A stretch of DNA of 64,000 nucleotides from Clostridia bacterium. Lineage in GTDB: Bacteria > Bacteroidota > Bacteroidia > Bacteroidales > 4484-276. This document shows positions 4,466 through 53,686 of this stretch, in pieces (the stretch's first letter is position 1; the number at the start of each line of letters is the position of its first letter). A program made the position numbers and the translations under genes. A model generated the notes under the pieces. That model made no database searches. It was given only the letters and a program-made list of their open reading frames with translations, and was not told the origin of the DNA. The stretch is from the NCBI GenBank assembly GCA_009928785.1, contig SABY01000002.1:10147-74146 (forward strand), read 5' to 3'.

Positions 4466-7400
4466 ATGTTAAAATTTTTTATCGACAGGCCGGTTTTCTC
4501 CACCGTCATCAGTATCCTGCTGGTAATTTTGGGATTGTTAGGACTGGAGCGTTTGCCTGTAACACAATATCCCGACATTGCTCCGCCTACGGTGCAGGTG
4601 TCGGCAGGTTATCCGGGCGCCAACGCCGAAACCATCCTTGAAAGTGTTATCATCCCCCTCGAAGAAGAGATCAATGGCGTGGAAGGCATGACCTACATCA
4701 CCTCCAGTGCCAGCAACAACGGGCGCGCCAGCATTCAGGTTTTTTTCGAGCAGGGCTACGATGCCGATATAGCTTCCGTTAATGTGCAAAATCGCGTTTC
4801 GGCGGCCAACTCGGTGCTGCCTGCCGAAGTAATTCGTTCCGGAATCACCGTTTCGAAAAGATTAAACTCCGCGTTGCTTTACGCTGCACTATATTCGTCC
4901 AACCCTGACTACGACGACACGTTTATTCAGAATTATCTTAACATCCATGTCAAACCGGAGCTTCAACGTATCAAAGGCGTTGGCGAAGTAGGCGTTTTTG
5001 GCGGGAAAGATTACGCCATGCGGGTGTGGCTCGACCCGACAAAAATGGCCAACTACGGTTTGATTCCCGCCGACGTGATCAATGCCATCGGCGAGCAAAG
5101 CCTCGAAGCTGCTGCCGGCGCGCTGGGACAAAATGCCGGCGAATCGTTTGAGTATGTCATCAAATACAAAGGGCGTTACAAAACTGCCGAAGAATATCAG
5201 GACATCATCATCCGCGCACTGGGCGATGGACGATATTTGCGTGTAAAAGATGTGGCTACCGTGGAGCTTGATGCTTTTAGCTACAGCACCCTGTCGCAGG
5301 CACTTGGCAATCCATCCATCAGCTTTGGAATTTACCAGACGCCCGGCTCCAACGCACAGGAAATCATTGAGGAAATCCACGAAACGCTACAGGAGCTGCG
5401 CAAAGATTTCCCGGAAGGAATCGACTATGTGGTGAATTACGATACCAATCGTTTTTTGACGGCTTCCATCGGCAAAGTACGCACCACGCTCATCGAAGCT
5501 TTTTTGCTGGTGTTTCTGGTGGTGTTCGTGTTCCTTCAGGATTTCCGTTCTACGCTTATCCCGGCCATAGCCGTTCCGGTGTCGATTATCGGTACCTTCT
5601 TTTTCCTGGGGCTTTTTGGCTATTCCATCAATCTGCTCACACTTTTTGCGCTGGTGCTGGCCATCGGTATTGTGGTGGACGATGCCATTGTGGTGGTGGA
5701 GGCGGTACATGCCAAGCTCGAAGGCGGCGCCACCAGTGCACGCGATGCCAGCGTGAGCGCCATGAACGAGATTTCCGGCGCCATTGTATCCATCACATTG
5801 GTAATGGCCGCCGTTTTTATCCCCATCACTTTCATAAAGGGACCGACGGGAGTTTTTTATGAGCAATTTGGCGTTACGCTTATCATAGCTATCCTCATCT
5901 CCGCCGTAAATGCACTTACACTTAGCCCGGCGCTTAGCGCAATATTTTTGAAACCTCAGCATGAATCCCGGCAAAAGAAAAAATTCCTGCGGCGGTTTTA
6001 TGAATTGTTTAATGCAGGTTTTAATGCAGGAAAAGCAAAATATGGACGCACGCTGGGATTTATAACGCGCCACAAATGGATTGTTCCTGCAGTGCTTATC
6101 ATCGCGGCTGCTTCGATAGTATTTCTCGACAGCAGCCTGCCCAAGGGATTTGTACCAACAGAGGATCGGGGTGTTATTTTTATGAACGGAGAACTGCCGC
6201 TGGCGGCATCGCTCGATCGTTCTTATGAAGTAACGCAGCAGCTTTACGAACGCATCAAAGATATCGAAGGCATCAATTCGGCCACACTCATTGCCGGACG
6301 AAATTTCTTTTCGGGTGCCGGCAGCTCCTACATCATGGGATTTATAAATCTAAAAAACTGGGACGAACGCGAAACCGAGGAAAGCTCTGTGGAAGGCATT
6401 CAGGGGCAATTGTTCCGTGCTGCTGCCTCGCTGAGCGACGCCAAAATCATCTTTTTTACGCCCTCAAGCATTCCCGGCTTTGGCAGTGTGGATGGTTTTG
6501 AGATGCAACTCCTCGACCGCACCTCCGGCGATTTGAAAGACCTCGATGAAACGGCTGGCGCTTTTACCAGAGAATTGATGCAGCAACCCGAAATCGGCTT
6601 TGCCTCCGATCCATTCAGCACCGACTATCCGCAACTACAAATGGAGATAGACGTGGCGCGCGCCAAGGAATCAGGCGTATCGGTGAACGACATCCTACGC
6701 ACCCTGCAAGGTTATGTGGGTGGATATTACACTACAAACTTCAGCCGCTTTGGCAAGCAATTCCGTGTGCAGGTGCAGGCGCTCCCCGAGGACAGGGTGA
6801 ATACCGAAAGTCTCAACAGCATGTTTGTAAAAACCCGCGACGGCAGCATGACGCCGGTGTCGGCATTTGTGACGCTGCAACGCATTTATGGCCCACAAAC
6901 TGTTACCCGCTTCAACCTTTTTAATTCGGTAGCTATTAATGGCACTTCCGCTCCGGGCTACAGCTCCGGCGACGCCATCGATGCCATCCGGCGTGTGGCT
7001 GAACGCTCACTTCCCAACGAATATCAAATAGCTTTCTCCGGTCTTACCCGCGAAGAAATCGCTGCCGGCGGACAGGCCATCCTTATCTTTTTCCTGAGCA
7101 TCTTGTTTGTATATTTCCTTTTGGCGGCGCAATACGAAAGTTACATTCTGCCGTTGGCGGTAATTCTTTCGCTGCCCATAGGGGTGGCCGGAGCTTACGC
7201 CAGCACCTGGATTGCCGGGTTGGAAAACAATATTTATTTTCAAATTGGATTAATAATGCTGGTGGGCTTGTTAGCCAAAAACGCAATCCTCATCGTGGAA
7301 TTTGCGCTGCAGCGACGCCGCCAGGGCATGAGTATCGTCAAGGCAGCCATCGACGGCGCTACGGTGCGTCTGCGCCCCATTTTGATGACTTCGTTTGCTT

Positions 7401-25969: not shown

Positions 25970-27625
25970 TTAGAATTCAAGTCGTAAGCCAAACATCAGG
26001 CTCATGCCTGAGCGGTCGGTAAATTGATCGGTCCAGGTAAAATCTTCTGTTACTTTGTCGCCATCTTCTGTTTCGGTATCAACATTGCCAAAGGGAGCAT
26101 AAAAATTAAGATGGCCCATTATCGAAAGATTATGGGTAATATTTATACCTAAGATGCCTCCGCCTTTCATGTAGCTTGTGCTGATGTCTTTGTAATGATC
26201 AGTGCTTGTTGATTCGATTCCATAAGCTGCATAAGGTGTTAATTCGACAATTCTTGCCAAGCGGATTCCTTTTCCAAGTCCAAATGAATATCTTAAGAAA
26301 GTGAAATCATCTTCAGTAAAATAAGTGTCCTCGTACGTTTGGGCATCAAAACCAATATCAGCCATCAGATATAGTGAAGGAACATTTAAAAACATACCGG
26401 CCCTAAACCAAAGCTGGGCATCAAATCCGCCAATGCCGCCTACTTCATAGCCGGCGATCAGCGAAAGTCCGAAATCGTTGCGTTGCTGCATCACCATGCC
26501 CTGGCGCACTGTGCCGCCGTAAACCTGATAAAACTTGCTTTCGCCGCTTGCACCGGTGGCTACACCACGGTTATCGGTAATTTTTCCCGTGGCTCTTACG
26601 ACGGCTTTCCGGTTCTGATCGGCTGTTCCGGTTTTCTCATTCCACACATATTCGTAAACAAAATATCGTTGGTCGCATCTCAGACCCTCTTTTTTACCAA
26701 TTTTCGATCGGATAGGATGCGTCCCCGAAACGTTCATTTTAACACGGAAAGGTTCCAGGTCTTTGTCGATGTTGAATAACGCATCATCGTACATTTGTTT
26801 GACTGCTTCATCTAAAAGCTGGTCGGAAGTTTTAGGGTTTTTCGTGAGCGCATAAATCTCGGTACTCGTTGCCGACATTCCTTGTTTTCCGTAAAATGAG
26901 GATAATGAAAATGAAAGAGTATCGAAAGCTGCAATTTTTGCATCTTTAATATTGGCAGGGTCATCATCAAACGGCCATTGCTCGTAAAAGCGGCTCACAA
27001 CCTCACTGTCGAAATTGAGTTTGTACAGAAAAACATCAAAAGTCGAACTCCAGCCATGTGATGTTTTGTCGTCGCTGTAGATTAATTCTTTTGGTGAGAT
27101 TACAAGGACGTAGGTTTTATTCACCAGCTTTTCGCCTGCGTCAAATAATACTGCTTCGCCTCGTTTGGCTGCACCCGACATCATAACATCCTGGTCGGAA
27201 GCATTGTAAAGCCCGCATTGATGGATATAATCGAGATTAAACATCCCGTCGGGCTGCCTGCTAAACCATTTGGCAATCATTTTTCTACCGATACCTTCCT
27301 TATCGAGATACTTTTTCAGTTCAATTTTTTTTGCGTCATAGCTTAAGTCTTTAAAATTCTTATTTAGTTCGATGGAAATTTCGTTCAGGTTGTGATTGAA
27401 ATACTTGTCGGTGAAGGCAATTTTTTTGGCCGATAAAGCTGCTTTCTCGCTGTTGTTGTCGCCCGGAAAAGTCGTAAAAAACAAGGTAACTGATGGTCTT
27501 GAGTATTCACTTTCAGATTTTTGCGGGTTATCCTGGCCAAACGCATCCTTTGATGACATGCCGTAAGTAAGGAACAGAAAAACAATCCCCAAAACATAAT
27601 GTAATGATGTTTTCATAAAAAGCAT
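25970..27625 (-). CDS. signal-peptide protein with C-terminal outer-membrane beta-barrel (551 aa), first gene of the operon
   Basis: Has a signal peptide. The last ~170 aa show an alternating hydrophobic beta-strand pattern ending FGLRLEF (C-terminal Phe, the outer-membrane protein signature). Confidence 0.65.
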   Translation of the reverse strand: MLFMKTSLHYVLGIVFLFLTYGMSSKDAFGQDNPQKSESEYSRPSVTLFFTTFPGDNNSEKAALSAKKIAFTDKYFNHNLNEISIELNKNFKDLSYDAKKIELKKYLDKEGIGRKMIAKWFSRQPDGMFNLDYIHQCGLYNASDQDVMMSGAAKRGEAVLFDAGEKLVNKTYVLVISPKELIYSDDKTSHGWSSTFDVFLYKLNFDSEVVSRFYEQWPFDDDPANIKDAKIAAFDTLSFSLSSFYGKQGMSATSTEIYALTKNPKTSDQLLDEAVKQMYDDALFNIDKDLEPFRVKMNVSGTHPIRSKIGKKEGLRCDQRYFVYEYVWNEKTGTADQNRKAVVRATGKITDNRGVATGASGESKFYQVYGGTVRQGMVMQQRNDFGLSLIAGYEVGGIGGFDAQLWFRAGMFLNVPSLYLMADIGFDAQTYEDTYFTEDDFTFLRYSFGLGKGIRLARIVELTPYAAYGIESTSTDHYKDISTSYMKGGGILGINITHNLSIMGHLNFYAPFGNVDTETEDGDKVTEDFTWTDQFTDRSGMSLMFGLRLEF

Positions 27626-43804: not shown

Positions 43805-43941
43805 AAATTTGAAGCGAAAGTAATTTATTTTTCGCCTTTCGGAAAATTACCCGACACCTTTTCGGTTTAGTGCAATAAGTTTTGCATGGGTTGAACGCTT
43901 ATTGCCGCATAATTGTTAACATTGCCAAAAAAAAATATCGT

Positions 43942-44730
43942 ATGGAAACTTATGGATTTTGCAATTTGAGCTGTGTGCCTTTGCGCGCCGCTGCCAGCCA
44001 TCAGAGCGAGATGGTGAGCCAGTTGCTTTTTGGCGAAACCTTTGAAATTCTGGGCAACGAAGGCGCCTGGTTGGCGGTGCAATGCAGCCACGACGACTAC
44101 CAGGGATTTATTGATGAGCGACAATGTTTGCTGATCTCTGACAAAGATTACCAGCATTTGCAGCAAGCCCACAACCAATACGCCGGCACTGTGAATAATT
44201 ATGCCACAGACCAGGCCGACAATCGTATCGAAATTTTCCCGGCGGCAAATATGCGGGGCTTTCGCAATGGCAAATTAGTGTTGGGAGCCACTACCTTTTC
44301 CTATGATCATCCGTTACAAAAGCCTTTGCCTAATGCCGCAGGTGCAGAAGTAATAAAATCTGCGCGCCTCTATCTCAATGCACCATACTTGTGGGGTGGC
44401 CGCACCACAGCAGGCATCGACTGCTCGGGGCTTACGCAAAATTCTTTTAATCAAAATGGAATAGCGCTTCAGCGGGATGCCTCCATGCAGGCTACTCAGG
44501 GCAAAACTATTCATCTTATTTGGGAAGCTAAATGTGGCGACCTGGCTTTTTTCGACAACACCGACGGACAGATAACCCACGTGGGAATTATCACCGGCGA
44601 AGGCACCATCATTCATGCTTCCGGTTTTGTCCGCATCGACGAAATAGACCACCAGGGCATCTTCGACAGCAAAACCCGAAAATACACCCACAACCTGAGA
44701 ACCATCAAGCGGCTGATTGACGAAGGGTAA
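43942..44730 (+). CDS. NlpC/P60 (C40) peptidase with N-terminal SH3-like domain
   Basis: YLWGGRTTAGIDCSGL catalytic Cys motif and HVGII His motif. The ATG at 43942 (METYGFC...) is preferred to 43882. Confidence 0.85.
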   Translation: METYGFCNLSCVPLRAAASHQSEMVSQLLFGETFEILGNEGAWLAVQCSHDDYQGFIDERQCLLISDKDYQHLQQAHNQYAGTVNNYATDQADNRIEIFPAANMRGFRNGKLVLGATTFSYDHPLQKPLPNAAGAEVIKSARLYLNAPYLWGGRTTAGIDCSGLTQNSFNQNGIALQRDASMQATQGKTIHLIWEAKCGDLAFFDNTDGQITHVGIITGEGTIIHASGFVRIDEIDHQGIFDSKTRKYTHNLRTIKRLIDEG

Positions 44731-44911
44731 GTTTGTTTGTTGTTTGTTGTTTGTTGTTTGTTTCCCGAATCGCTGCGCTCTCGGGATTTCCCCGATGGGT
44801 CGGGGCAGGCAGCTGCGCTCAAGTTTGTTGTTCGTTGTTCGTTGTTTGTTGTTTGTTGTTTTTTGTTTGTTGTTTCCCGTATCGCGGCGCACCAGCGTTT
44901 TGCATCTCAAG
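44731..44911. repeat. two tandem composite units: GTT-rich tract followed by TTTCCCG[A/T]ATCGC...CTCAAG
   Basis: (GTTTGTT)n blocks at 44731-44763 and 44823-44875, each followed by a GC-rich segment containing short hairpins (TCCCGA/TCGGGA, CCCCGA/TCGGGG). Confidence 0.8.
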
Positions 44912-46132: not shown

Positions 46133-46819
46133 CTATTCAAAACCTTTTAGCAGGTCAGGGCGGCGGGTTTTGGTTTTCTCGATGGCTTTCTCCATCGACC
46201 ACTGGTAGATGGCTTTTTCGTTTCCCGACAAAAGTATTTCCGGAACCTTCCAGCCGTTGTAATCCGCCGGGCGTGTGTAAACCGGCGGGCTAAGCAAATC
46301 ATCCTGAAAAGAATCGGAGAGCGCCGAAGTTTCGTCGCCCAGCACGCCGGGGATAAGCCGCACGATGCTGTCAGTGACTACGGCTGCTGCCAGCTCGCCA
46401 CCCGAAAGCACATAGTCGCCGATGGAAATTTCGAGGGTGATGTAATGCTCGCGCAGCCGCTCATCGATGCCTTTGTAATGTCCGCACAGCAAGATGATGT
46501 TTTGAAATGTAGAAAGCCGGTTGGCGGTGGGCTGATCGAAGAGCTGGCCGTCGGGCGTAAGAAAAATCACCTCGTCGTAATCCCGCTCGCCGCGGAGTTT
46601 ATCTATCAGGTCGGCGATGGGTTGAATGGCCATCACCATGCCAGCGCCGTGGCCATAAGCATAATCATCTACACGCCGGTGCTTGTCGCGGGAGTAGTCG
46701 CGGATGTTGTGGATAAGGATTTCGGCCAGCCCCTTGTTCTTTGCCCGCTTGATGATGGAGTGATCGAACGGGCCGGCAAAAATCTCCGGAAAGATGGTAA
46801 GTATGTCGATGCGCATCAC
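46133..46819 (-). CDS. trmD: tRNA (guanine37-N1)-methyltransferase
   Basis: [12 protein letters not shown]..., [14 protein letters not shown] and [18 protein letters not shown] motifs. Confidence 0.95.
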
Positions 46820-47132
46820 AGTTCAGTTTTGAAATGGTTAATGCGCTGAATTTCGTTTGATCTCCCGCTGCAGGATTTGATCTGTAACTTCATAAACCGG
46901 CTGCTGTGCGTTTTAAAATTTTGCATCATCCGGCAAAAGTAGCAAAAACGCGTCTTTGGAGCGGGAGGAGATTATTCTTGGAGGAGTGGTTTGGGGAGTA
47001 ATAGGTGGCAGAATGGTTAGTTGCCGTTTTTAAAGTACTTTCATTTAAGGTTTCAAGAAAACTAGAGTGGGCTACAACCCTTGATTTCACCACTGAACCG
47101 GCTAATATTTTATACATTGTTGCCAGTAGTGC

Positions 47133-48092
47133 TTATTCGAACATATTAAAATCTAACACTCTGTCTTCATAAATACTCGAGGCTGATTCTTGAAATATTT
47201 TATTAATACTTTTCTCTCGCGGTTTAATTTTTTTGGTGTAAAAACTTTCTGAACACGCCCACATTTCAGACCTACAAAGTAATAAATCATTCAGTTTTTT
47301 AAATAATGTATCTTCATCACAATCAAAAAAAGACTGAACAAAACCTCCGCAATTCGATTTATGTTCTTTCAGATAACCCACTATTAAAACATTCCCATCT
47401 TCAATTGGGAAAAATGAAATAAATATATCTGTTAAAATTTCGTAGTCTTTACCTGTTGACTGAATTTGATTCTTTCTTTCACTTGTAGTTTCATAGGTAA
47501 AATGTGAGGCAAGACAAATTTCACAATGTTTAGTATATTTAAATTTAAAGACGAAATTTTGAGTGTTACTATTTAAGTCTGATTCAATTTTTCCCTGATA
47601 ATATTCAATATCTTTAATCCCAACTCTTTGCTGCTTGTCCAAATCATCAATTAACTCAATGTCAATTTCTCCTGACAATATTCTAGATTCTTTTTGATAT
47701 TTATACCAATCTAATAATATCTCTTTCTTAACTTTTTCATTTAATAATGTTCGATACGCAAAAAGTAATTGGCTTTTATAATTTTCAAAATCTATTTCAA
47801 AATCTTCAATCGGAGAAAATATGTTTTTGTCATGTACTGTACAAAAACCTTTAAAAGAAAAGGCCTGGTTAATACCGACTCGTTTAAAATGGAATAAGTC
47901 GGTTTTAAAGAAATCAGATTCTGAGATTCGAATATGACCATTTTCTGCTATCTCATTCAGGATTCCATTTTTCTGTAATACATGCGAATTTATAGCTTGC
48001 TCATTACAATTTTTCACATTACATATTCTCTGTTTTGCAGAAGCTCTTCTAAATGTTTTATTAAGAACCTCTTGTATTTGCTTGCTTTTCAT
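47133..48092 (-). CDS. hypothetical Cys/His-rich protein (319 aa) downstream of the helicase-PLD gene
   Basis: AT-rich ORF co-directional with 48264-51443. Motifs CNVKNCNEQAINSHVL and GFCTVHD; no family recognised. An alternative upstream start is at 48182. Confidence 0.55.
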   Translation of the reverse strand: MKSKQIQEVLNKTFRRASAKQRICNVKNCNEQAINSHVLQKNGILNEIAENGHIRISESDFFKTDLFHFKRVGINQAFSFKGFCTVHDKNIFSPIEDFEIDFENYKSQLLFAYRTLLNEKVKKEILLDWYKYQKESRILSGEIDIELIDDLDKQQRVGIKDIEYYQGKIESDLNSNTQNFVFKFKYTKHCEICLASHFTYETTSERKNQIQSTGKDYEILTDIFISFFPIEDGNVLIVGYLKEHKSNCGGFVQSFFDCDEDTLFKKLNDLLLCRSEMWACSESFYTKKIKPREKSINKIFQESASSIYEDRVLDFNMFE

Positions 48093-48263
48093 TATTATAT
48101 TTTTGCCTATCATTACTACCAACGGATGTATCTGTATGTCCAATAAGGAATTCTCACCTAAATTACATACGAAGTATTGCACTTCAATTTATTGTTTTCC
48201 TGTCCTAAATAGCACGAACTCCCAACTTGCGAGTAAATGTTGTTATGCGCATACTCTTCTCTT

Positions 48264-51200
48264 CTATTTTGGCTTCCACCATGCATTTCTCCTATTAGAA
48301 TATTTATAACCTCGCATTTTAACCGAACTCCAAAGTAACTTTTCTGATTCCCACTGTCTGCCTGCCGTTTCATTGTCAAATAGGTCTAATGCAGTTTCGG
48401 TTGTTGGCGTATTTGTATTATTTATTCTGGCTGGCCGTCTTGGGGGATTTGGATTTCTTCTTGCCTGGCGTCTTTCCAATTCTTCCAAAGCCTTAATTCT
48501 AATGTCGGCTGTAAATCTGCAATTAGGATAACCTGAACATCCATAAAATGACCTGCCGTAATAATTCTTGGGGCGGATAAAGTTTATCTTGTCCAACTTT
48601 TTACATTCAGGGCAAAACTCACCATTTAGATTAGGATTGTAAAGTAATTCTTCTAAGTCAAACCTTTTAAACAATTCTTTCACTGTGTTTTCTCCCTCAA
48701 ATCGCTTCATGTATTCTTTCCTGCTGTTGTGACTCAAAATATTTAAGCTACCAGACCATTCGATTTTCCTGTCAATTATCGCAATTTTTTCGTGCATTCC
48801 ATCTCGAAACTTAACAGTGACACCCATTTCTTTCAATTTTGAAACCACTTCTGTTGCGCCTTTTAACTGAAGTCGGTCATTGGGAGAGAGGGTTATTACG
48901 GAAATTCGGATTCCCTTTGAAAGCAACTGTGAAAACTTCATTTGAAGTTTTCCTAACCTATCACTTGTGAGATAAGGAGAAAAAATTATCAATTCGGAAT
49001 TTGCTTTTGCCAAATCGTTATGGAACGCCACCCAAAAATCAATGTCGTCATAATTAGAACCGATGTTCTCTGGACTATCTTCAAGTGAATTGAGTTTGGC
49101 TGCCCAATAATCAAAATTTTCGTCACGCAAATCAGCAATGATTTCAGTTGAACTGATTTCCTTTCCTTTTTCAATGATGTGATCCAGCACATCAATGAAA
49201 AAAGTATTTCTTTCAAAAGATTTCTTGATGTATTTGTGGTTTGCAACAACAAACAATTTTGTTTTCGCTCTTGTCAAAGCAACATTGATAAGTAGTTTAG
49301 CACTTTCGGTGTTGTTGTACTCATTTATCATTGACCATTTCTTTGCTCCTTCTCCTTCAACACTATCAAAAATTATTGCTGTCTCTTCACCTCCCTGAAA
49401 ACTGTGAATAGTGTTTACTCTTATTATAGCTTTTTCGTTTTTTTTATTTTTATCAATCAGCCCTTTGTCCTCTGCAATTTTCAGAATAAGTCGTGCCTGA
49501 CTTCTGTATGGTGTAATTATTCCGATGGATTCGTTTTGTTCAAATGACTTTGATAATTTTTCAGCAAGTGAAACGCAAATCAAAGCACTAATAAGATTAA
49601 ATCTGCCGCGAGCCTCTAACTGACTGCACCAAGGATTATGAATTGAAGTGTCAATGAGACAAACTGCTGAATTACCTGCAACGCTGTCGTATTTAATTTT
49701 GCTTTTTACGGATTCATCATCTTCAAGTCGGTTTTCGTAAATTCTTTTGTTTACTATTTCCGAAATGTGTGGGTGCATTCTGTATTGTATGTAAAGTGGT
49801 TGCACTCTTTTTTCCGCTTGGCTTATTTCAGAAATATGCAGTTCATCAAATATGCTTCTGCCTAACCATTTCTTTGCAAGTTCATCATCAGAAATGCATA
49901 TAGGTGGAAGCTGTTTGAAGTCGCCTACAATTGTAATTCCCTTTTTGATTTTTGAAGCTGCCCAATAGAGCATAGGCATTGGAGCCATGCTCACCTCATC
50001 AACAAGCAAGATATCAAATTCAACATTCTCAATCTCCTTGGAAATGTAGGATTTAGTTAAAGTGGTTGCAACGAGTTTTGCATCTTTCAGAACCTGGATT
50101 TTTATTTCCTCAAGAGCCTTGTTGATTTCATTCAACCGGATTTGCAATTGCCTTACCTTATTGTCAAACTCATTTACTTCACTTTGAATTTCTGAAAGTG
50201 ATTTGCCAACTTTAGAAAGCTGTTTTGATAATTCAGCTTCGCTTTTCCTATACGTTGTTGCAAGTGTATGAGCATTTTGATTGGCTTGCGTTAATTTTTT
50301 CTCAAGGTTTTTAAGTTGATTTGTCCAGTCAGATAGATTTAAGTTAGCAATTTCAAGATATGCTTCAATCCTACAAGGAGCAAGTCCTAAAAGTATTCGT
50401 TTTAAAACTCCTGAATTCTGTGCCTTAATTAATTCTTTCTGCAGCTCTGATATTCGCTTTTGAGTTTGAGAAATGTCATATTTTAATGGGTTTGCTAGTA
50501 AAAAAAGAGCTAGTTGTTCAGCTCCTAAATTTGATAGCTGTGAATTTATCTTGCCCATTTCGAGATTCAGATTTATAATGTCGTCGTTAGTTTGTTTTGC
50601 TTCTTTGATATTTTCAAGCCTACTATTCAATTCCTGTTTTTCTTCTAAAAGATATTTTGATTTGAACTCGGCAATCTTGTCAATCATTACCAAAGTGCAA
50701 TCTTCCTGTTCATATTTATCACTCATTTCAGGTTTTGGAGTTCCTAACCTTAACAGTTGCCCTTCTTTGTAATAAGTTTTTCTCATTTGACCCGCTACTT
50801 TCAAAAGTGCTTGGTCAACAGCATTGTTTGAATGTGATAAGAGTAAAACCTTTCTGCCTAAGTTCAAATGACTTTCAATTGCTTTAGCAATCGTTTGAGT
50901 TTTTCCTGTTCCAGGTGGCCCCCAAATTATCGAAAGGAAATCGTTGATTGAAGATTCAACTGCTTTATGTTGATATGGATTCGGGTGGTCTTTTCCGTTG
51001 ATAGAATATGATGTGCTGAAATTCCCTCCATCAATTTGAGAACGGTCGTCTTGAAATAACTTGTTGCTGTTTTCAAATCGGCTTTGAGTGTTTAGGTTGT
51101 CCTCATATTTCTTTTTTAATCGTTCAAGCAAATACCAAGTGTTAGTTTTAATTTTTGCAATCGGAATTCTTTCTCCTAATTTCTGCTTGATAGAAATTTG

Positions 51201-51443
51201 AACCTGTAGTCCTGTTACGGAAATAATGTCGCAATCATATTCTTTGCCGTTTACTTCAATGTTGGCTGGCGTGTCGTCAAGGGCAACCAGAAAACTTTCA
51301 AGAGTAAATTGATAAATAAAAAGGTCAAGAGTGTGTCTAATCAGCTCTCCATTATAAACTGTTGCAATATTGCCGCCTATCCCATTTTGGAGGACCTCAA
51401 TTTCAATTGCTAAAGCATCTATGAATTCATTTACAATGGCCAT
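48264..51443 (-). CDS. SF1 (Upf1/DNA2-like) helicase fused to a PLD-family nuclease and a topoisomerase-type C4 zinc ribbon (Mokosh type II-like)
   Basis: Helicase motifs: Walker A IWGPPGTGKTQT; LLVDEVSM; GDFKQLPP; QYRMHPHI; TPYRSQ; HSFQGGE; NVALTRAK. HKD motif GMHEKIAIIDRKIEWSGSLNILSH. Zinc ribbon CPECKK...YGCSGYPNC. Confidence 0.85.
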   Translation of the reverse strand: MAIVNEFIDALAIEIEVLQNGIGGNIATVYNGELIRHTLDLFIYQFTLESFLVALDDTPANIEVNGKEYDCDIISVTGLQVQISIKQKLGERIPIAKIKTNTWYLLERLKKKYEDNLNTQSRFENSNKLFQDDRSQIDGGNFSTSYSINGKDHPNPYQHKAVESSINDFLSIIWGPPGTGKTQTIAKAIESHLNLGRKVLLLSHSNNAVDQALLKVAGQMRKTYYKEGQLLRLGTPKPEMSDKYEQEDCTLVMIDKIAEFKSKYLLEEKQELNSRLENIKEAKQTNDDIINLNLEMGKINSQLSNLGAEQLALFLLANPLKYDISQTQKRISELQKELIKAQNSGVLKRILLGLAPCRIEAYLEIANLNLSDWTNQLKNLEKKLTQANQNAHTLATTYRKSEAELSKQLSKVGKSLSEIQSEVNEFDNKVRQLQIRLNEINKALEEIKIQVLKDAKLVATTLTKSYISKEIENVEFDILLVDEVSMAPMPMLYWAASKIKKGITIVGDFKQLPPICISDDELAKKWLGRSIFDELHISEISQAEKRVQPLYIQYRMHPHISEIVNKRIYENRLEDDESVKSKIKYDSVAGNSAVCLIDTSIHNPWCSQLEARGRFNLISALICVSLAEKLSKSFEQNESIGIITPYRSQARLILKIAEDKGLIDKNKKNEKAIIRVNTIHSFQGGEETAIIFDSVEGEGAKKWSMINEYNNTESAKLLINVALTRAKTKLFVVANHKYIKKSFERNTFFIDVLDHIIEKGKEISSTEIIADLRDENFDYWAAKLNSLEDSPENIGSNYDDIDFWVAFHNDLAKANSELIIFSPYLTSDRLGKLQMKFSQLLSKGIRISVITLSPNDRLQLKGATEVVSKLKEMGVTVKFRDGMHEKIAIIDRKIEWSGSLNILSHNSRKEYMKRFEGENTVKELFKRFDLEELLYNPNLNGEFCPECKKLDKINFIRPKNYYGRSFYGCSGYPNCRFTADIRIKALEELERRQARRNPNPPRRPARINNTNTPTTETALDLFDNETAGRQWESEKLLWSSVKMRGYKYSNRRNAWWKPK

Positions 51444-51594
51444 GTTTTGTCAGTTATTTTGAACTTGTTCCGTACTTTAAAGAGTTGTAGCGTTTTACAA
51501 TACAAACCGGTTAGGTTTTCGAGCGCGTCTGTATCCACAGTTGGGAAAGTTGATTTCAAAATCTAAGTCCCGCAAACCACCGCATTGCACGTGC

Positions 51595-52074
51595 TTAATG
51601 TGTGTGTTGTGGTTTCGTGGTTTTGCTTTTCCTGGATTCGCCAACATTATAGAGAAACTCCGGGGCGAAATCTGCTCCATTTTCCCATTCAATCGTAAAT
51701 GGATTTAATTTGAAGTTTTTGAAATACTCTTCGTTTTTTAAAGGAACAAACATTCCGCCCCATAATTGATCTTGAAAGTCAATGACTTTAGTTTTTCCGT
51801 CATTAAATCGGAATTCGATTTTGTATCCTTCAATGTATTTTGCGCAGATTACTTTTATTGGATAGATTTCTTGTCTTACACTTTCTACTTCTTCTGTTAT
51901 AGTTTTTAGATCAAGGTCTTTTGTTTTAAATGTCTTTAGTAAACGAGACAATTTTGTATCAATAGCCTCTTTTTCCAATTCTTTGGTCAACATAATTTTT
52001 TGTTGCCGTGGAAGCTGCTTAACCACCGAAAGGATTTGCTCAAACGTAATATCTATTTGCAATGCTGTTTTCAT
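51595..52074 (-). CDS. antitoxin-like N-terminal region fused to a DUF2442-like domain
   Basis: N-terminus ITFEQILSVVKQLPRQQKIMLTKELEKE...ITEEVESVRQEIY resembles small addiction-module antidote-like proteins. The C-terminal half YKIEFRFNDGKTKVIDF...IEWENGADFAPEFLY is DUF2442-like. Confidence 0.55.
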   Translation of the reverse strand: MKTALQIDITFEQILSVVKQLPRQQKIMLTKELEKEAIDTKLSRLLKTFKTKDLDLKTITEEVESVRQEIYPIKVICAKYIEGYKIEFRFNDGKTKVIDFQDQLWGGMFVPLKNEEYFKNFKLNPFTIEWENGADFAPEFLYNVGESRKSKTTKPQHTH

Positions 52075-52312
52075 CTTTCAAGCTGTTTTTATTGTTTCGC
52101 AAATTTAAAAAATAATCATTGTAGTCCGCAATTTTATTCATGTGTTCACCTCGTTGGGAAACACACTTTTTTATAAGTCAAAAGTTGTTCATGGTATTTT
52201 TACGAATTGAAGGTCGGCTGTTTTTGACCAGACTACTTTTCGTTTAGCCTTTCTATATTTCGTTTATCCTTCCGGCAATTCTTACTTGATATCATATTTT
52301 AAAATACTACCA

Positions 52313-53686
52313 TCACTCCTTCACCCAAATAGTTTTAATATTAACAAACTCCTTGATGCCGTAATGCGAAAGCTCGCGGCCGTAGCCGGAGTTTTTGATG
52401 CCGCCAAAAGGCAGGCGGGGATCGGATTTTGTCATCCCGTTGATGAACACACCGCCCGACTCGATCTGCCGCGCCAACTGCTGCGCCTTTTCGATGTCGC
52501 GGCTCCAGAGGCTGCCGCCCAGTCCGTATTGGCTGTTGTTGGCAAGCAGGATGGCGTGTTCTTCGCTGTCGGCTTTTATCACCGCCATCACCGGGCCGAA
52601 AGTTTCTTCATCAAACAGCGGCATTCCGGCCGTAACGTCCGTAACTACAGCCGGAGCAAAATAAAATCCTTTTCGCTTTAGCGGATGTCCGCCCATGCGT
52701 AGTTTGGCGCCCATGCGCACCGATTTGTCTATTTGCTGCTGCAATGCGTCCATCAGGTCGGCGCGTGCCAGGGGGCCATAGTCGATGTGGTCAGTGGCGG
52801 GATCGCCGGTTTTCAGAGTTTCCATTTTGTGGATGGCGCGCGCCACAAAATCGTCGTAAACTTCTTTGGCCACGATAAAACGCTTGGCGGCAATGCAACT
52901 CTGGCCAGTGTTGATCATGCGGGCAGTTACGGCTGTTTCGACACATTTTTCCATATCGGCATCAGCCAAAACAATGAAGGCGTCGGAGCCGCCAAGTTCC
53001 AGCACGGTTTTTTTGAGCAGGCGTCCGCAGGTGGCGGCTACTTTGCTTCCGGCATGTTCGCTGCCGGTAAGTGTTGCAGCGCGGATGTTCCGGTGTTGTA
53101 ATATCTCCTCCACTTTGTCGGAACCCACCAGAAGCGTACGAAACAGATTTTCCGGGGCACCGGCCTGCTCAAAAACTGACTCTATGGCCAGTGCGCAGCC
53201 GCTTACGTTGGAAGCGTGTTTGAGCACCCCCGCATTGCCAGCCATGAGCGCCGGAGCGGCAAAACGGAATACCTGCCAAAACGGAAAATTCCAGGGCATT
53301 ACGGCCAGCACCACCCCTATCGGCTCAAAAGAAACAAAGCTCCGTGAAGCATCGCTGGCGATGGTTTCGTCTGCAAGAATCTTTGCTGCATTTTCGGCGT
53401 AATAGCGGCACACCCACGCGCACTTTTCTATCTCGGAGCGCGCCTCGCTTAGCGGCTTGCCCATTTCGTTGGTCATCAGCAGCGCCAGCTCATCCCGGCG
53501 TTTCTCTAAAACATCGGCCACGCGCAGCATCAACTCCGAGCGGTGATCTATGGTGGTGGTTTTCCAATGATTCCAAGCCTCGTAAACCTGATCGACGATC
53601 CGGTTGCATTGTTCGATAGTGTAGGGTTCGTATTCGAGAATGAGCGCTTCGGTGGAAGGATTGATACTTTTCATAATGGTTTTCAA
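52313..53686 (-). CDS. NAD(P)-dependent aldehyde dehydrogenase (succinate-semialdehyde dehydrogenase-like)
   Basis: VLELGGSDAFIV and NTGQSCIAAKRF (catalytic Cys) motifs; 457 aa. Confidence 0.9.
   Translation of the reverse strand: MKTIMKSINPSTEALILEYEPYTIEQCNRIVDQVYEAWNHWKTTTIDHRSELMLRVADVLEKRRDELALLMTNEMGKPLSEARSEIEKCAWVCRYYAENAAKILADETIASDASRSFVSFEPIGVVLAVMPWNFPFWQVFRFAAPALMAGNAGVLKHASNVSGCALAIESVFEQAGAPENLFRTLLVGSDKVEEILQHRNIRAATLTGSEHAGSKVAATCGRLLKKTVLELGGSDAFIVLADADMEKCVETAVTARMINTGQSCIAAKRFIVAKEVYDDFVARAIHKMETLKTGDPATDHIDYGPLARADLMDALQQQIDKSVRMGAKLRMGGHPLKRKGFYFAPAVVTDVTAGMPLFDEETFGPVMAVIKADSEEHAILLANNSQYGLGGSLWSRDIEKAQQLARQIESGGVFINGMTKSDPRLPFGGIKNSGYGRELSHYGIKEFVNIKTIWVKE

Follow-up and report, generated by a model that had tools for sequence, protein, structure and literature searches.

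Type II Mokosh is an anti-phage system made of a single gene, which encodes a COG1112 helicase with a PLD nuclease after it; the Escherichia coli systems lose defense when Walker A or PLD is mutated (10.1101/2022.05.11.491447). A study that worked with YjhR, the fused Mokosh protein, also pointed out how the pairing of helicase and PLD resembles the piRNA pathway (10.1101/2022.12.12.520048). Rugutis (pUCCL633_059; Grafakou et al. 2024) is a validated single-gene lactococcal Abi-like system with a confident predicted fold that has no match in the PDB (PMC11381338). Expression of the terminase large subunit of phage c2 makes Rugutis toxic, and escape mutants fall in the terminase ATPase domain (PMC12184496; Mosterd et al. 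2025). Here we describe an AT-rich island of 5.2 kb on contig SABY01000002.1, between the genes for an aldehyde dehydrogenase (ALDH) and TrmD, that encodes divergent relatives of both systems next to a fused antitoxin. We consider it probable that the ALDH-trmD interval is a recombination-driven hotspot for accessory genes and that the island is a mini defense island of three independent pieces: a Mokosh II-like protein (open reading frame B, or ORF B), a Rugutis-like protein (ORF C), and the antitoxin fusion (ORF A). The three are named by their coordinates in the window, which is the whole 64,000-nucleotide (nt) stretch analyzed; lengths of proteins are in amino acids (aa).

46820..52312, no strand: trmD-ALDH interval, with the AT-rich island proper at ~46960-52312 (from the GC profile and synteny)
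46133..46819, minus strand: trmD, flanking core gene (PF01746, 1e-59; 95.5% nt identity to a sister contig)
52313..53686, minus strand: ALDH, flanking core gene (PF00171, 7e-142; 91.6% nt identity to sister contig L165)
48264..51443, minus strand: ORF B, 1059 aa, type II Mokosh-like (Pfam, PADLOC, PDB sequence matches, collinearity with YjhR)
47133..48092, minus strand: ORF C, 319 aa, single-gene anti-phage protein of the Rugutis type, lacking SEC-C (hhalign, BLASTP, shared residues)
51595..52074, minus strand: ORF A, 159 aa, in-frame fusion of two antitoxins (NCBIfam VapB15, Pfam DUF2442)

An initial annotation of this DNA had described a sharp drop in composition at ~47.1-52.1 kb between two ordinary core genes, with three minus-strand ORFs in the trough, and each of these observations was reproduced, including the exact counts of 15 G+C at 49201-49260 and 34 at 46501-46560, the coordinates in the ORF list, and the Pfam identities of both flanks. 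The GC fraction lies at 0.28-0.38 across ~47.0-52.2 kb and at 0.45-0.57 in the flanks; it is 0.346 for 46960-52200 against 0.470 for the remainder of the window, and the mean of the 1-kb intervals inside the island falls 3.2 standard deviations under the mean of those outside. The lowest-GC 5-kb stretch of the window begins at 47201 (0.344), and the lowest elsewhere has 0.41. G+C at third codon positions (GC3) follows the same pattern: trmD has 0.68 and ALDH 0.63, whereas ORF A stands at 0.31, ORF B at 0.32, and ORF C at 0.22.

Relatives of the locus were drawn from a metagenome scan with trmD that returned 80 loci; exact-protein look-ups of the window's own TrmD and ALDH gave no match, probably owing to differing start-codon calls. 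ALDH stands upstream of trmD in just the three closest of the 80 loci, whose trmD is 79-84% identical. The gap between the two genes is 310 bp in one of these (L009) and 8 bp in another (L010), both without the island, and in the third a 645-aa gene with genome-typical GC occupies the position. Because ALDH and trmD adjoin without the block in the closest relatives and its composition is foreign, the AT-rich block of ~5 kb is a real, horizontally acquired insertion, as the initial annotation had proposed. The locus has the features of a defense island at a variable hotspot, with two defense-type genes and antitoxin remnants at a position that differs between close relatives.

It does not look like an integrase-mediated island, which would carry an integrase or recombinase, a tRNA or other att target, and direct repeats. 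The initial annotation had noted no integrase, tRNA, or flanking direct repeat, and our searches agree: Pfam finds no integrase domain in ORF A, ORF B, or ORF C, the window contains no tRNA, no Rfam family matches within 44-55 kb, and neither direct or att-like repeats nor terminators rise above chance at the edges of the island or of the recently exchanged block within it that is described below.

ORF B had rightly been recognized by the initial annotation as a helicase-nuclease fusion. Its predicted parts, namely a superfamily 1 (SF1) helicase, a PLD nuclease C-terminal to it, and smaller elements around them, are these:

aa 1-135, minus strand: N-terminal helix and beta-barrel (structure model and Foldseek)
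aa 155-740, nt 49224-50981, minus strand: Upf1-like SF1 helicase (AAA_11/AAA_12, aa 155-736)
~aa 260-455, minus strand: coiled-coil insertion of ~200 aa in RecA1
aa 810-929, nt 48657-49016, minus strand: PLD nuclease with HKD motif (PLDc_2, 4e-10)
aa 942-980, nt 48504-48620, minus strand: four-Cys Top1-type Zn ribbon (Zn_ribbon_Top1, a sub-threshold Pfam match)
C-terminus, minus strand: basic, Trp-rich tail

A PADLOC run, which the initial annotation had named as a check, answered for ORF B, with MkoA as the best match (1e-60, in the helicase part) and MkoC as a second (3.4e-32, aa 554-913), and not for ORF C. The nearest solved structures by sequence are Upf1/NAM7 (8e-25), DNA2, IGHMBP2, and Sen1. 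Residues 640-933 align in order with E. coli YjhR (26% identity, E 6e-16), over a stretch that begins at helicase motif V and takes in the HKD motif of the PLD domain. Both E. coli yjhR copies inspected, from K-12 MG1655 and strain AVS0226, are truncated. More than 100 full-length relatives of ~1000-1070 aa share the architecture, and they span Bacteroidota, Chlorobi, Calditrichota, KSB1, Deinococcota, and archaea. In 16 aligned relatives, Walker A (GPPGTGKT), Walker B (DExS), motifs III-VI including QYRMHP and NVAxTRA, and the PLD active site H884-x-K886-x4-D891...GSLN are invariant, as are C944, C969, and C975 of the Zn ribbon; C947, of the CPxC pair, is kept in most. The N-terminal 135 aa were modeled as a helix, a six-stranded barrel, and two helices with a predicted local distance difference test score (pLDDT) of 85.8, and the longest Foldseek alignments of this model were to Upf1 and IGHMBP2 (2xzo, 4b3g). 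The N terminus is therefore predicted to be the family's own 1B barrel and stalk rather than a foreign sensor domain.

Like type II Mokosh (MkoC, the YjhR type of E. coli; Millman et al. 2022), ORF B places a Upf1-like SF1 helicase ahead of a PLD domain with an intact HKD motif in one polypeptide, and its family occurs as a stand-alone gene in variable or defense regions. It has the domain content by which type II Mokosh is defined: a single gene, an intact COG1112/Upf1-like helicase N-terminal to the PLD, and an HxK(x)4D active site. In contrast to E. coli Mokosh II (EcMokosh II; ~132-138 kDa), it is shorter, at 1059 aa and ~122 kDa, and unlike type II Mokosh as described (10.1101/2022.05.11.491447), it has the RecA1 coiled coil, the Top1-type Zn ribbon, and the basic Trp-rich tail. 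We file it as a type II Mokosh-like protein, divergent because its MkoC match is partial and because of these three additions. Eukaryotic Upf1, IGHMBP2, and MOV10L1 with Zucchini (PLD6) offer a wider comparison, being of the same helicase family, 1B barrel and stalk included, and paired with a single-HKD PLD. Unlike MOV10L1 and Zucchini, ORF B fuses both activities, and the likeness is at the level of domains and does not imply a small-RNA pathway.

Two features of the ORF B family stand somewhat apart. The tail carries the motif W-E-S...W-S-S...PGY-x-Y-S-x-K-K-N-A-W-W-K (aa ~1022-1059, nt 48264-48380) in 10 of the 16 aligned relatives; it is kept in all relatives with at least 44% identity except one from Thorarchaeota (P0116), is missing in more distant ones, and matches no family. 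At the far end of the family, five relatives from Bacillus, Peribacillus, and Cellulosilyticum (L098-L102) match aa 1-780 of the query, the barrel and helicase, and end before the PLD domain. Variants of ORF B with another C-terminal effector, or none, may thus exist.

ORF C had been left as an unknown partner by the initial annotation, a description that no longer fits. Its homologs favor the ATG at 48092 (319 aa) over an upstream GTG at 48182. Neither ORF C nor 70 relatives matched Pfam, NCBIfam, PHROGs, or PADLOC-2023, a PDB profile search with ORF C gave no match, and its AF2 model (pLDDT 92.8) has no fold neighbor in the PDB or BFVD. The family is nonetheless very large, with 4,126 clusters (at 50% identity) found at E<=1e-3 in an exhaustive profile search. 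The connection to Rugutis came from distant relatives found on plasmids by tblastn and annotated as "SEC-C domain-containing protein," one of which is a 359-aa coding sequence of the Lactococcus plasmid pUCCL633A. We treat this as the Rugutis protein (pUCCL633_059) itself, because the strain and plasmid name pUCCL633, the length of 359 aa, and the N-terminal SEC-C motif all agree. Aligned with it by hhalign, the ORF C family profile reaches a probability of 99.1% (E 4e-19) over 271 columns, which is the whole core, and BLASTP of ORF C gives 36% identity (E 4e-14). The residues C24, C29, H37, Q40, C84, H87, D88, E96, R114, E119, and K123 are invariant in the ORF C group and the Rugutis group alike. 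SEC-C (PF02810) occupies aa 5-30 in Rugutis and two plasmid relatives; it was not detected in ORF C and 34+36 family members, and the segment is missing in the alignment with Rugutis.

From these comparisons, ORF C is classed as a SEC-C-less Rugutis homolog. The likeness extends to a homologous core with the shared invariant pattern C, C, H, Q, C-x2-HD, E, R, E-x3-K, to a single gene of ~320-360 aa with a high-confidence fold and no PDB neighbor, and to being carried alone, as an accessory gene, by plasmids and islands. Unlike Rugutis, ORF C has no N-terminal SEC-C zinc knuckle, shares only 21-36% identity, and sits in a Bacteroidota-like rather than a Lactococcus host. The conserved Cys/His/Asp/Glu cluster suggests a metal-dependent enzyme. 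An HNH or His-Me finger was considered for the N-terminal Cys/His segment (CxxC...H...N...CxxH pattern) and dropped, as ten members gave no Pfam support at E = 10 and no fold matched. On three plasmids, pUCCL633A, pShin-10, and pHDC14-2.74K (L209-L211), the RefSeq label of the relative reads only "SEC-C domain-containing protein."

The history of the island can be read from sister contigs. Ten contigs from other samples share the arrangement trmD-ORF C-ORF B-ORF A, and a comparison of the window with eight contigs, segment by segment, separates a nearly identical block from its surroundings. The block and the nt identities to the sister contigs are as follows:

46960..51556, no strand: recently exchanged block with 99.8% identity to sister contigs, running from the intergenic DNA before ORF B through ORF B and ORF C to 173 nt past the latter
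ORF B: 99.9%
171-bp spacer between ORF B and ORF C: 100%
ORF C: 99.8-99.9%
173 nt downstream of ORF C: 100%
ORF A: 89-95%
spacer between ORF A and ORF B: 89%
yigZ-like gene: ~90%

Against one sister contig, the block differs by eight mismatches over ~4.6 kb. Synonymous divergence (dS) from the sister amounts to 0.0015 in ORF B and 0.0057 in ORF C, compared to 0.14 for trmD, 0.30 for ORF A, and 0.14-0.45 for the neighbors overall. Because the block is 99.8% identical with tiny dS while its surroundings have diverged by 4-11%, these values point to a very recent exchange of ORF B and ORF C between otherwise diverged lineages. The route was likely homologous recombination through the conserved flanks, since integrase, tRNA, and edge repeats were not found.

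Upstream of ORF A, the sister contigs retain more. There, ORF A shares 4 nt with a ParE gene directly upstream (ParE_toxin in L165, 29.1 bits against a cutoff of 23), and before ParE come an 80-aa gene, one or two Gp49 (HigB-like)/HTH_3 pairs, two unassigned genes, and a second copy of 95 nt from the ALDH 3' end. In this genome, a scar marks the place:

52202..52269, minus strand: 68-bp scar of a deleted parD-like/parE toxin-antitoxin (TA) module, 95.6% identical to L165 4943-5010 (end of the 80-aa gene and start of ParE)

The island thus appears to have been built in layers, with ParE and HigBA-like modules kept by the sisters and lost here. In L165, the 95-nt ALDH duplicate (4565-4659; window 52408-52502, 88% identical) lies between the HigBA-like and ParE modules, a sign that DNA had been inserted or replaced earlier at the hotspot's ALDH end. 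The Gp49/HTH_3 pair occurs twice in tandem in L165 (2502-4281) and once in L166, L170, and L171, and therefore the copy number of this TA module varies between samples.

ORF A itself consists of two recognizable halves:

aa 1-71, nt 51862-52074, minus strand: VapB15-like part (VapB15, 105.6 bits against a cutoff of 80, aa 6-71)
aa 72-159, nt 51595-51861, minus strand: DUF2442 part (42 bits against 23.9, aa 78-143)

At the junction (...VRQEIY|PIKVI...), a near-complete VapB15 is joined to DUF2442 from its residue three. Outside this lineage, homologs have half the length (DUF2442 of ~90 aa or VapB15-like of ~90 aa), except for one of 159 aa (P0262) that is 78% identical over an alignment of just 32% of the query. 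Free-standing antitoxins encoded next to PIN_3 or DUF4160 toxin genes share 75-90% identity with the matching half; a DUF4160 gene precedes one free-standing DUF2442 homolog (P0175), and an overlapping PIN_3 gene follows one VapB15-like homolog (P0236). Neither a PIN toxin gene nor a DUF4160 ORF stands beside ORF A, which is therefore part of neither a VapBC module nor a DUF4160/DUF2442 (DhiT/DhiA-like) module. Each half passes its model cutoff, as VapB15-family and DUF2442 (DhiA-like) type II antitoxins do, and yet, unlike the free-standing proteins, ORF A is one polypeptide, lacks both cognate toxin genes, and is a lineage-restricted fusion. The simplest origin would be a tandem vapB-vapC-DUF4160-DUF2442 arrangement from which a deletion took out vapC together with the DUF4160 gene. 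The ratio of nonsynonymous to synonymous divergence (dN/dS) from a sister contig is 0.16 at a dS of 0.30, and the fusion is thus maintained by purifying selection rather than decaying. The antitoxin-like character that the initial annotation had assigned to this small protein stands; its place as the antitoxin of a three-gene system does not.

That annotation had expected the three genes to act together in anti-phage defense and had asked whether they co-occur. The defense-related content is supported, through ORF B and ORF C, and the joint module is not: in the contexts inspected, none of the three families adjoins another outside this lineage, and ORFs A, B, and C are not a conserved three-gene module. 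Relatives of ORF B with 60-79% identity are found singly, next to an IS256-like transposase, in a gap flanked by pheT and other genes, or within a defense island (L161) that also holds methyltransferase plus MutH-like, NucS/EVE, and SLFN_AlbA_2 genes. A genome-contig scan with ORF B was dominated by its generic Walker A pattern, and its relatives at 22-34% identity served only as negative controls for co-occurrence; none of 67 such distant relatives in reference genomes has an ORF A- or ORF C-type neighbor by tblastn or profile, and one of them, in L120, lies in a defense setting with an HsdR and an HNH_2 gene as neighbors. Homologs of ORF C are solitary or have unrelated neighbors in five independent contexts and on three plasmids: one lies between gnd and an HU-like gene, one beside a PIN_4 gene, and one in an island with reverse transcriptase, SocA/Panacea, and ApeA-HEPN genes, and those on plasmids neighbor insertion sequence elements, VapBC, and AbiH. 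Both the ORF B and the ORF C families are AT-rich relative to their flanks in other genomes too, and no close relative of either was found in viral contigs. In one further case (L004 8001-9939), an ORF C homolog is followed directly by a DUF2971 gene, a Pfam match flagged as weak, inside a polysaccharide-synthesis locus. DUF2971 is a domain of the lactococcal Aristaios anti-phage system, and Rugutis-like and Aristaios-like single-gene systems appear to adjoin there.

The alternative that survives best, while unlikely, is that ORF B and ORF C cooperate as a two-gene cassette, transferred and transcribed jointly, in which, for example, the Rugutis-like protein senses or regulates and the helicase-PLD protein executes. 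In its favor, both genes, their 171-bp spacer, and the region upstream of ORF B form one sharp-edged 99.8%-identical block in eight sister contigs from several samples, the two are co-directional, and a TAnnTTTG element lies upstream of neither. Yet an ORF C-family gene stands beside no other ORF B relative among ~70 loci, including those at 60-79% identity, no helicase-PLD gene adjoins the ORF C homologs at 33-63% identity, Rugutis (PMC11381338) and type II Mokosh (10.1101/2022.05.11.491447) each work as single genes, and one recombination tract over adjacent genes would account for the co-transfer. A more elaborate form, to which we attach a low probability, would make the SEC-C-less Rugutis-type and Zn-ribbon Mokosh-type pair a co-transcribed and co-transferred sensor/executor unit, with the double-antitoxin fusion upstream as a broad anti-addiction or regulatory module. 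If true, the pair would amount to a novel composite, put together from components of known single-gene systems.

It is similarly doubtful that the island has nothing to do with defense, ORF B being an accessory helicase-nuclease of RNA/DNA processing or repair and the other two ORFs unrelated passengers of a variable region. Housekeeping genes do surround some solitary ORF B relatives (L160, L089-L093), and nonimmune roles are known for Upf1-like helicases and PLD nucleases too. Against this are the patchy distribution and the absence of the block from the nearest relatives, the foreign composition here and elsewhere with recent transfer, the experimental validation of the homologous systems, and the presence of TA modules and other defense genes nearby. 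The idea that ORFs A, B, and C form one three-gene defense system with ORF A as antitoxin or regulator is very improbable and largely refuted: the three are co-directional, closely spaced, and all AT-rich, with the sole promoter-like -7 element upstream of ORF A, but the fusion is lineage-restricted with halves that belong to VapBC and DUF4160/DUF2442 pairs, its lower identity to the sisters (89-95% against 99.8-99.9% for ORF B and ORF C) bespeaks a separate history, its overlap with ParE makes it a member of a TA operon in the sister contigs, and no VapB- or DUF2442-like gene adjoins any other ORF B or ORF C relative.

The preferred reading, a hotspot holding three independent pieces, has its own points of strain. 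The MkoC match to ORF B spans profile positions 777-1109 of 1136 (~29%), and its helicase is nearer MkoA. The Rugutis link consists of profile and pairwise homology at 21-36% identity, with no model for ORF C in PADLOC-DB 2023, and SEC-C, the only annotated motif of Rugutis, is the one that ORF C lacks. Co-occurrence was judged from ~8-12 independent genomic contexts per family, a set that does not include the closest homologs (for ORF B, P0053-P0057, 81-82%; for ORF C, P0002-P0005, 66-76%). That ORF B and ORF C travel as one 4.6-kb block, neither with its own consensus promoter element, leaves room for functional coupling. All three ORFs, finally, are known here through sequence comparison and models.

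If the assignments are right, each protein would act on its own. ORF B would be a complete 5'-3' SF1 helicase, laid out as a 1B barrel, stalk helices, and two RecA domains with a long coiled-coil insertion. By analogy with Mokosh, this ATP-driven Upf1-type translocase would engage phage RNA or replication intermediates and deliver or license the PLD domain, which, going by its family, would cleave phage nucleic acid. The Zn ribbon may add nucleic-acid binding, and the single HKD motif probably requires dimerization, perhaps through the coiled coil. For ORF C, homology to Rugutis suggests activation by a late phage protein followed by cell arrest, with both the trigger and the effector chemistry predicted on that basis. 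ORF A may be an orphan antitoxin or regulator and, more speculatively, could buffer incoming VapC or DUF4160 toxins.

A single candidate element, weak as evidence, bears on how the genes may be transcribed:

52100..52107, minus strand: candidate -7 promoter element of the Bacteroidota type (TAAATTTG), 26 nt ahead of the start codon of ORF A (pattern search)

The motif (TAnnTTTG) is barely above chance in the window, with 66 found against 54 expected, and the pattern search placed none upstream of ORF B or ORF C. A transcript that starts at the element before ORF A and reads through all three ORFs is conceivable.

Some smaller features accompany the locus. A 63-aa ORF at 46926-47117 (minus strand), in the gap that separates ORF C from trmD, has no Pfam match, although gene calls in the sister contigs include it; it crosses the boundary of the 99.8%-identical block and could be spurious. 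Elsewhere in the window, a 551-aa ORF at 25970-27625 (minus strand) lies in the second-lowest GC patch (1-kb GC of 0.36-0.38 at ~26.7-27.8 kb), has no Pfam match at E<=1e-5, and may be further foreign cargo. Two short tandem-repeat arrays with 7-nt units (TTGTTTG and GTTTGTT; 4 and 7.6 copies) occupy intergenic DNA at 44731-44875, downstream of a 282-aa ORF at 43882-44730.

We conclude that the locus is an ordinary defense hotspot with divergent variants of two known single-gene systems. It does not overturn current views; it is a well-resolved example of such a hotspot, in which Mokosh II and Rugutis would stand side by side, outside their original hosts, in an uncultured Bacteroidota-type genome. 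It also captures what appears to be a very recent exchange of a defense cassette, at a dS of ~0.002-0.006 amid neighbors at 0.14-0.45, and in ORF A, a case of TA decay that seems to have left a selected, toxin-less double antitoxin. For the Rugutis family, the comparison shows a core of ~300 aa, spread over ~4,100 clusters and without a Pfam, NCBIfam, PHROG, or PADLOC-2023 model, in which SEC-C would be dispensable, and the invariant residues of ORF C offer targets for mutagenesis.

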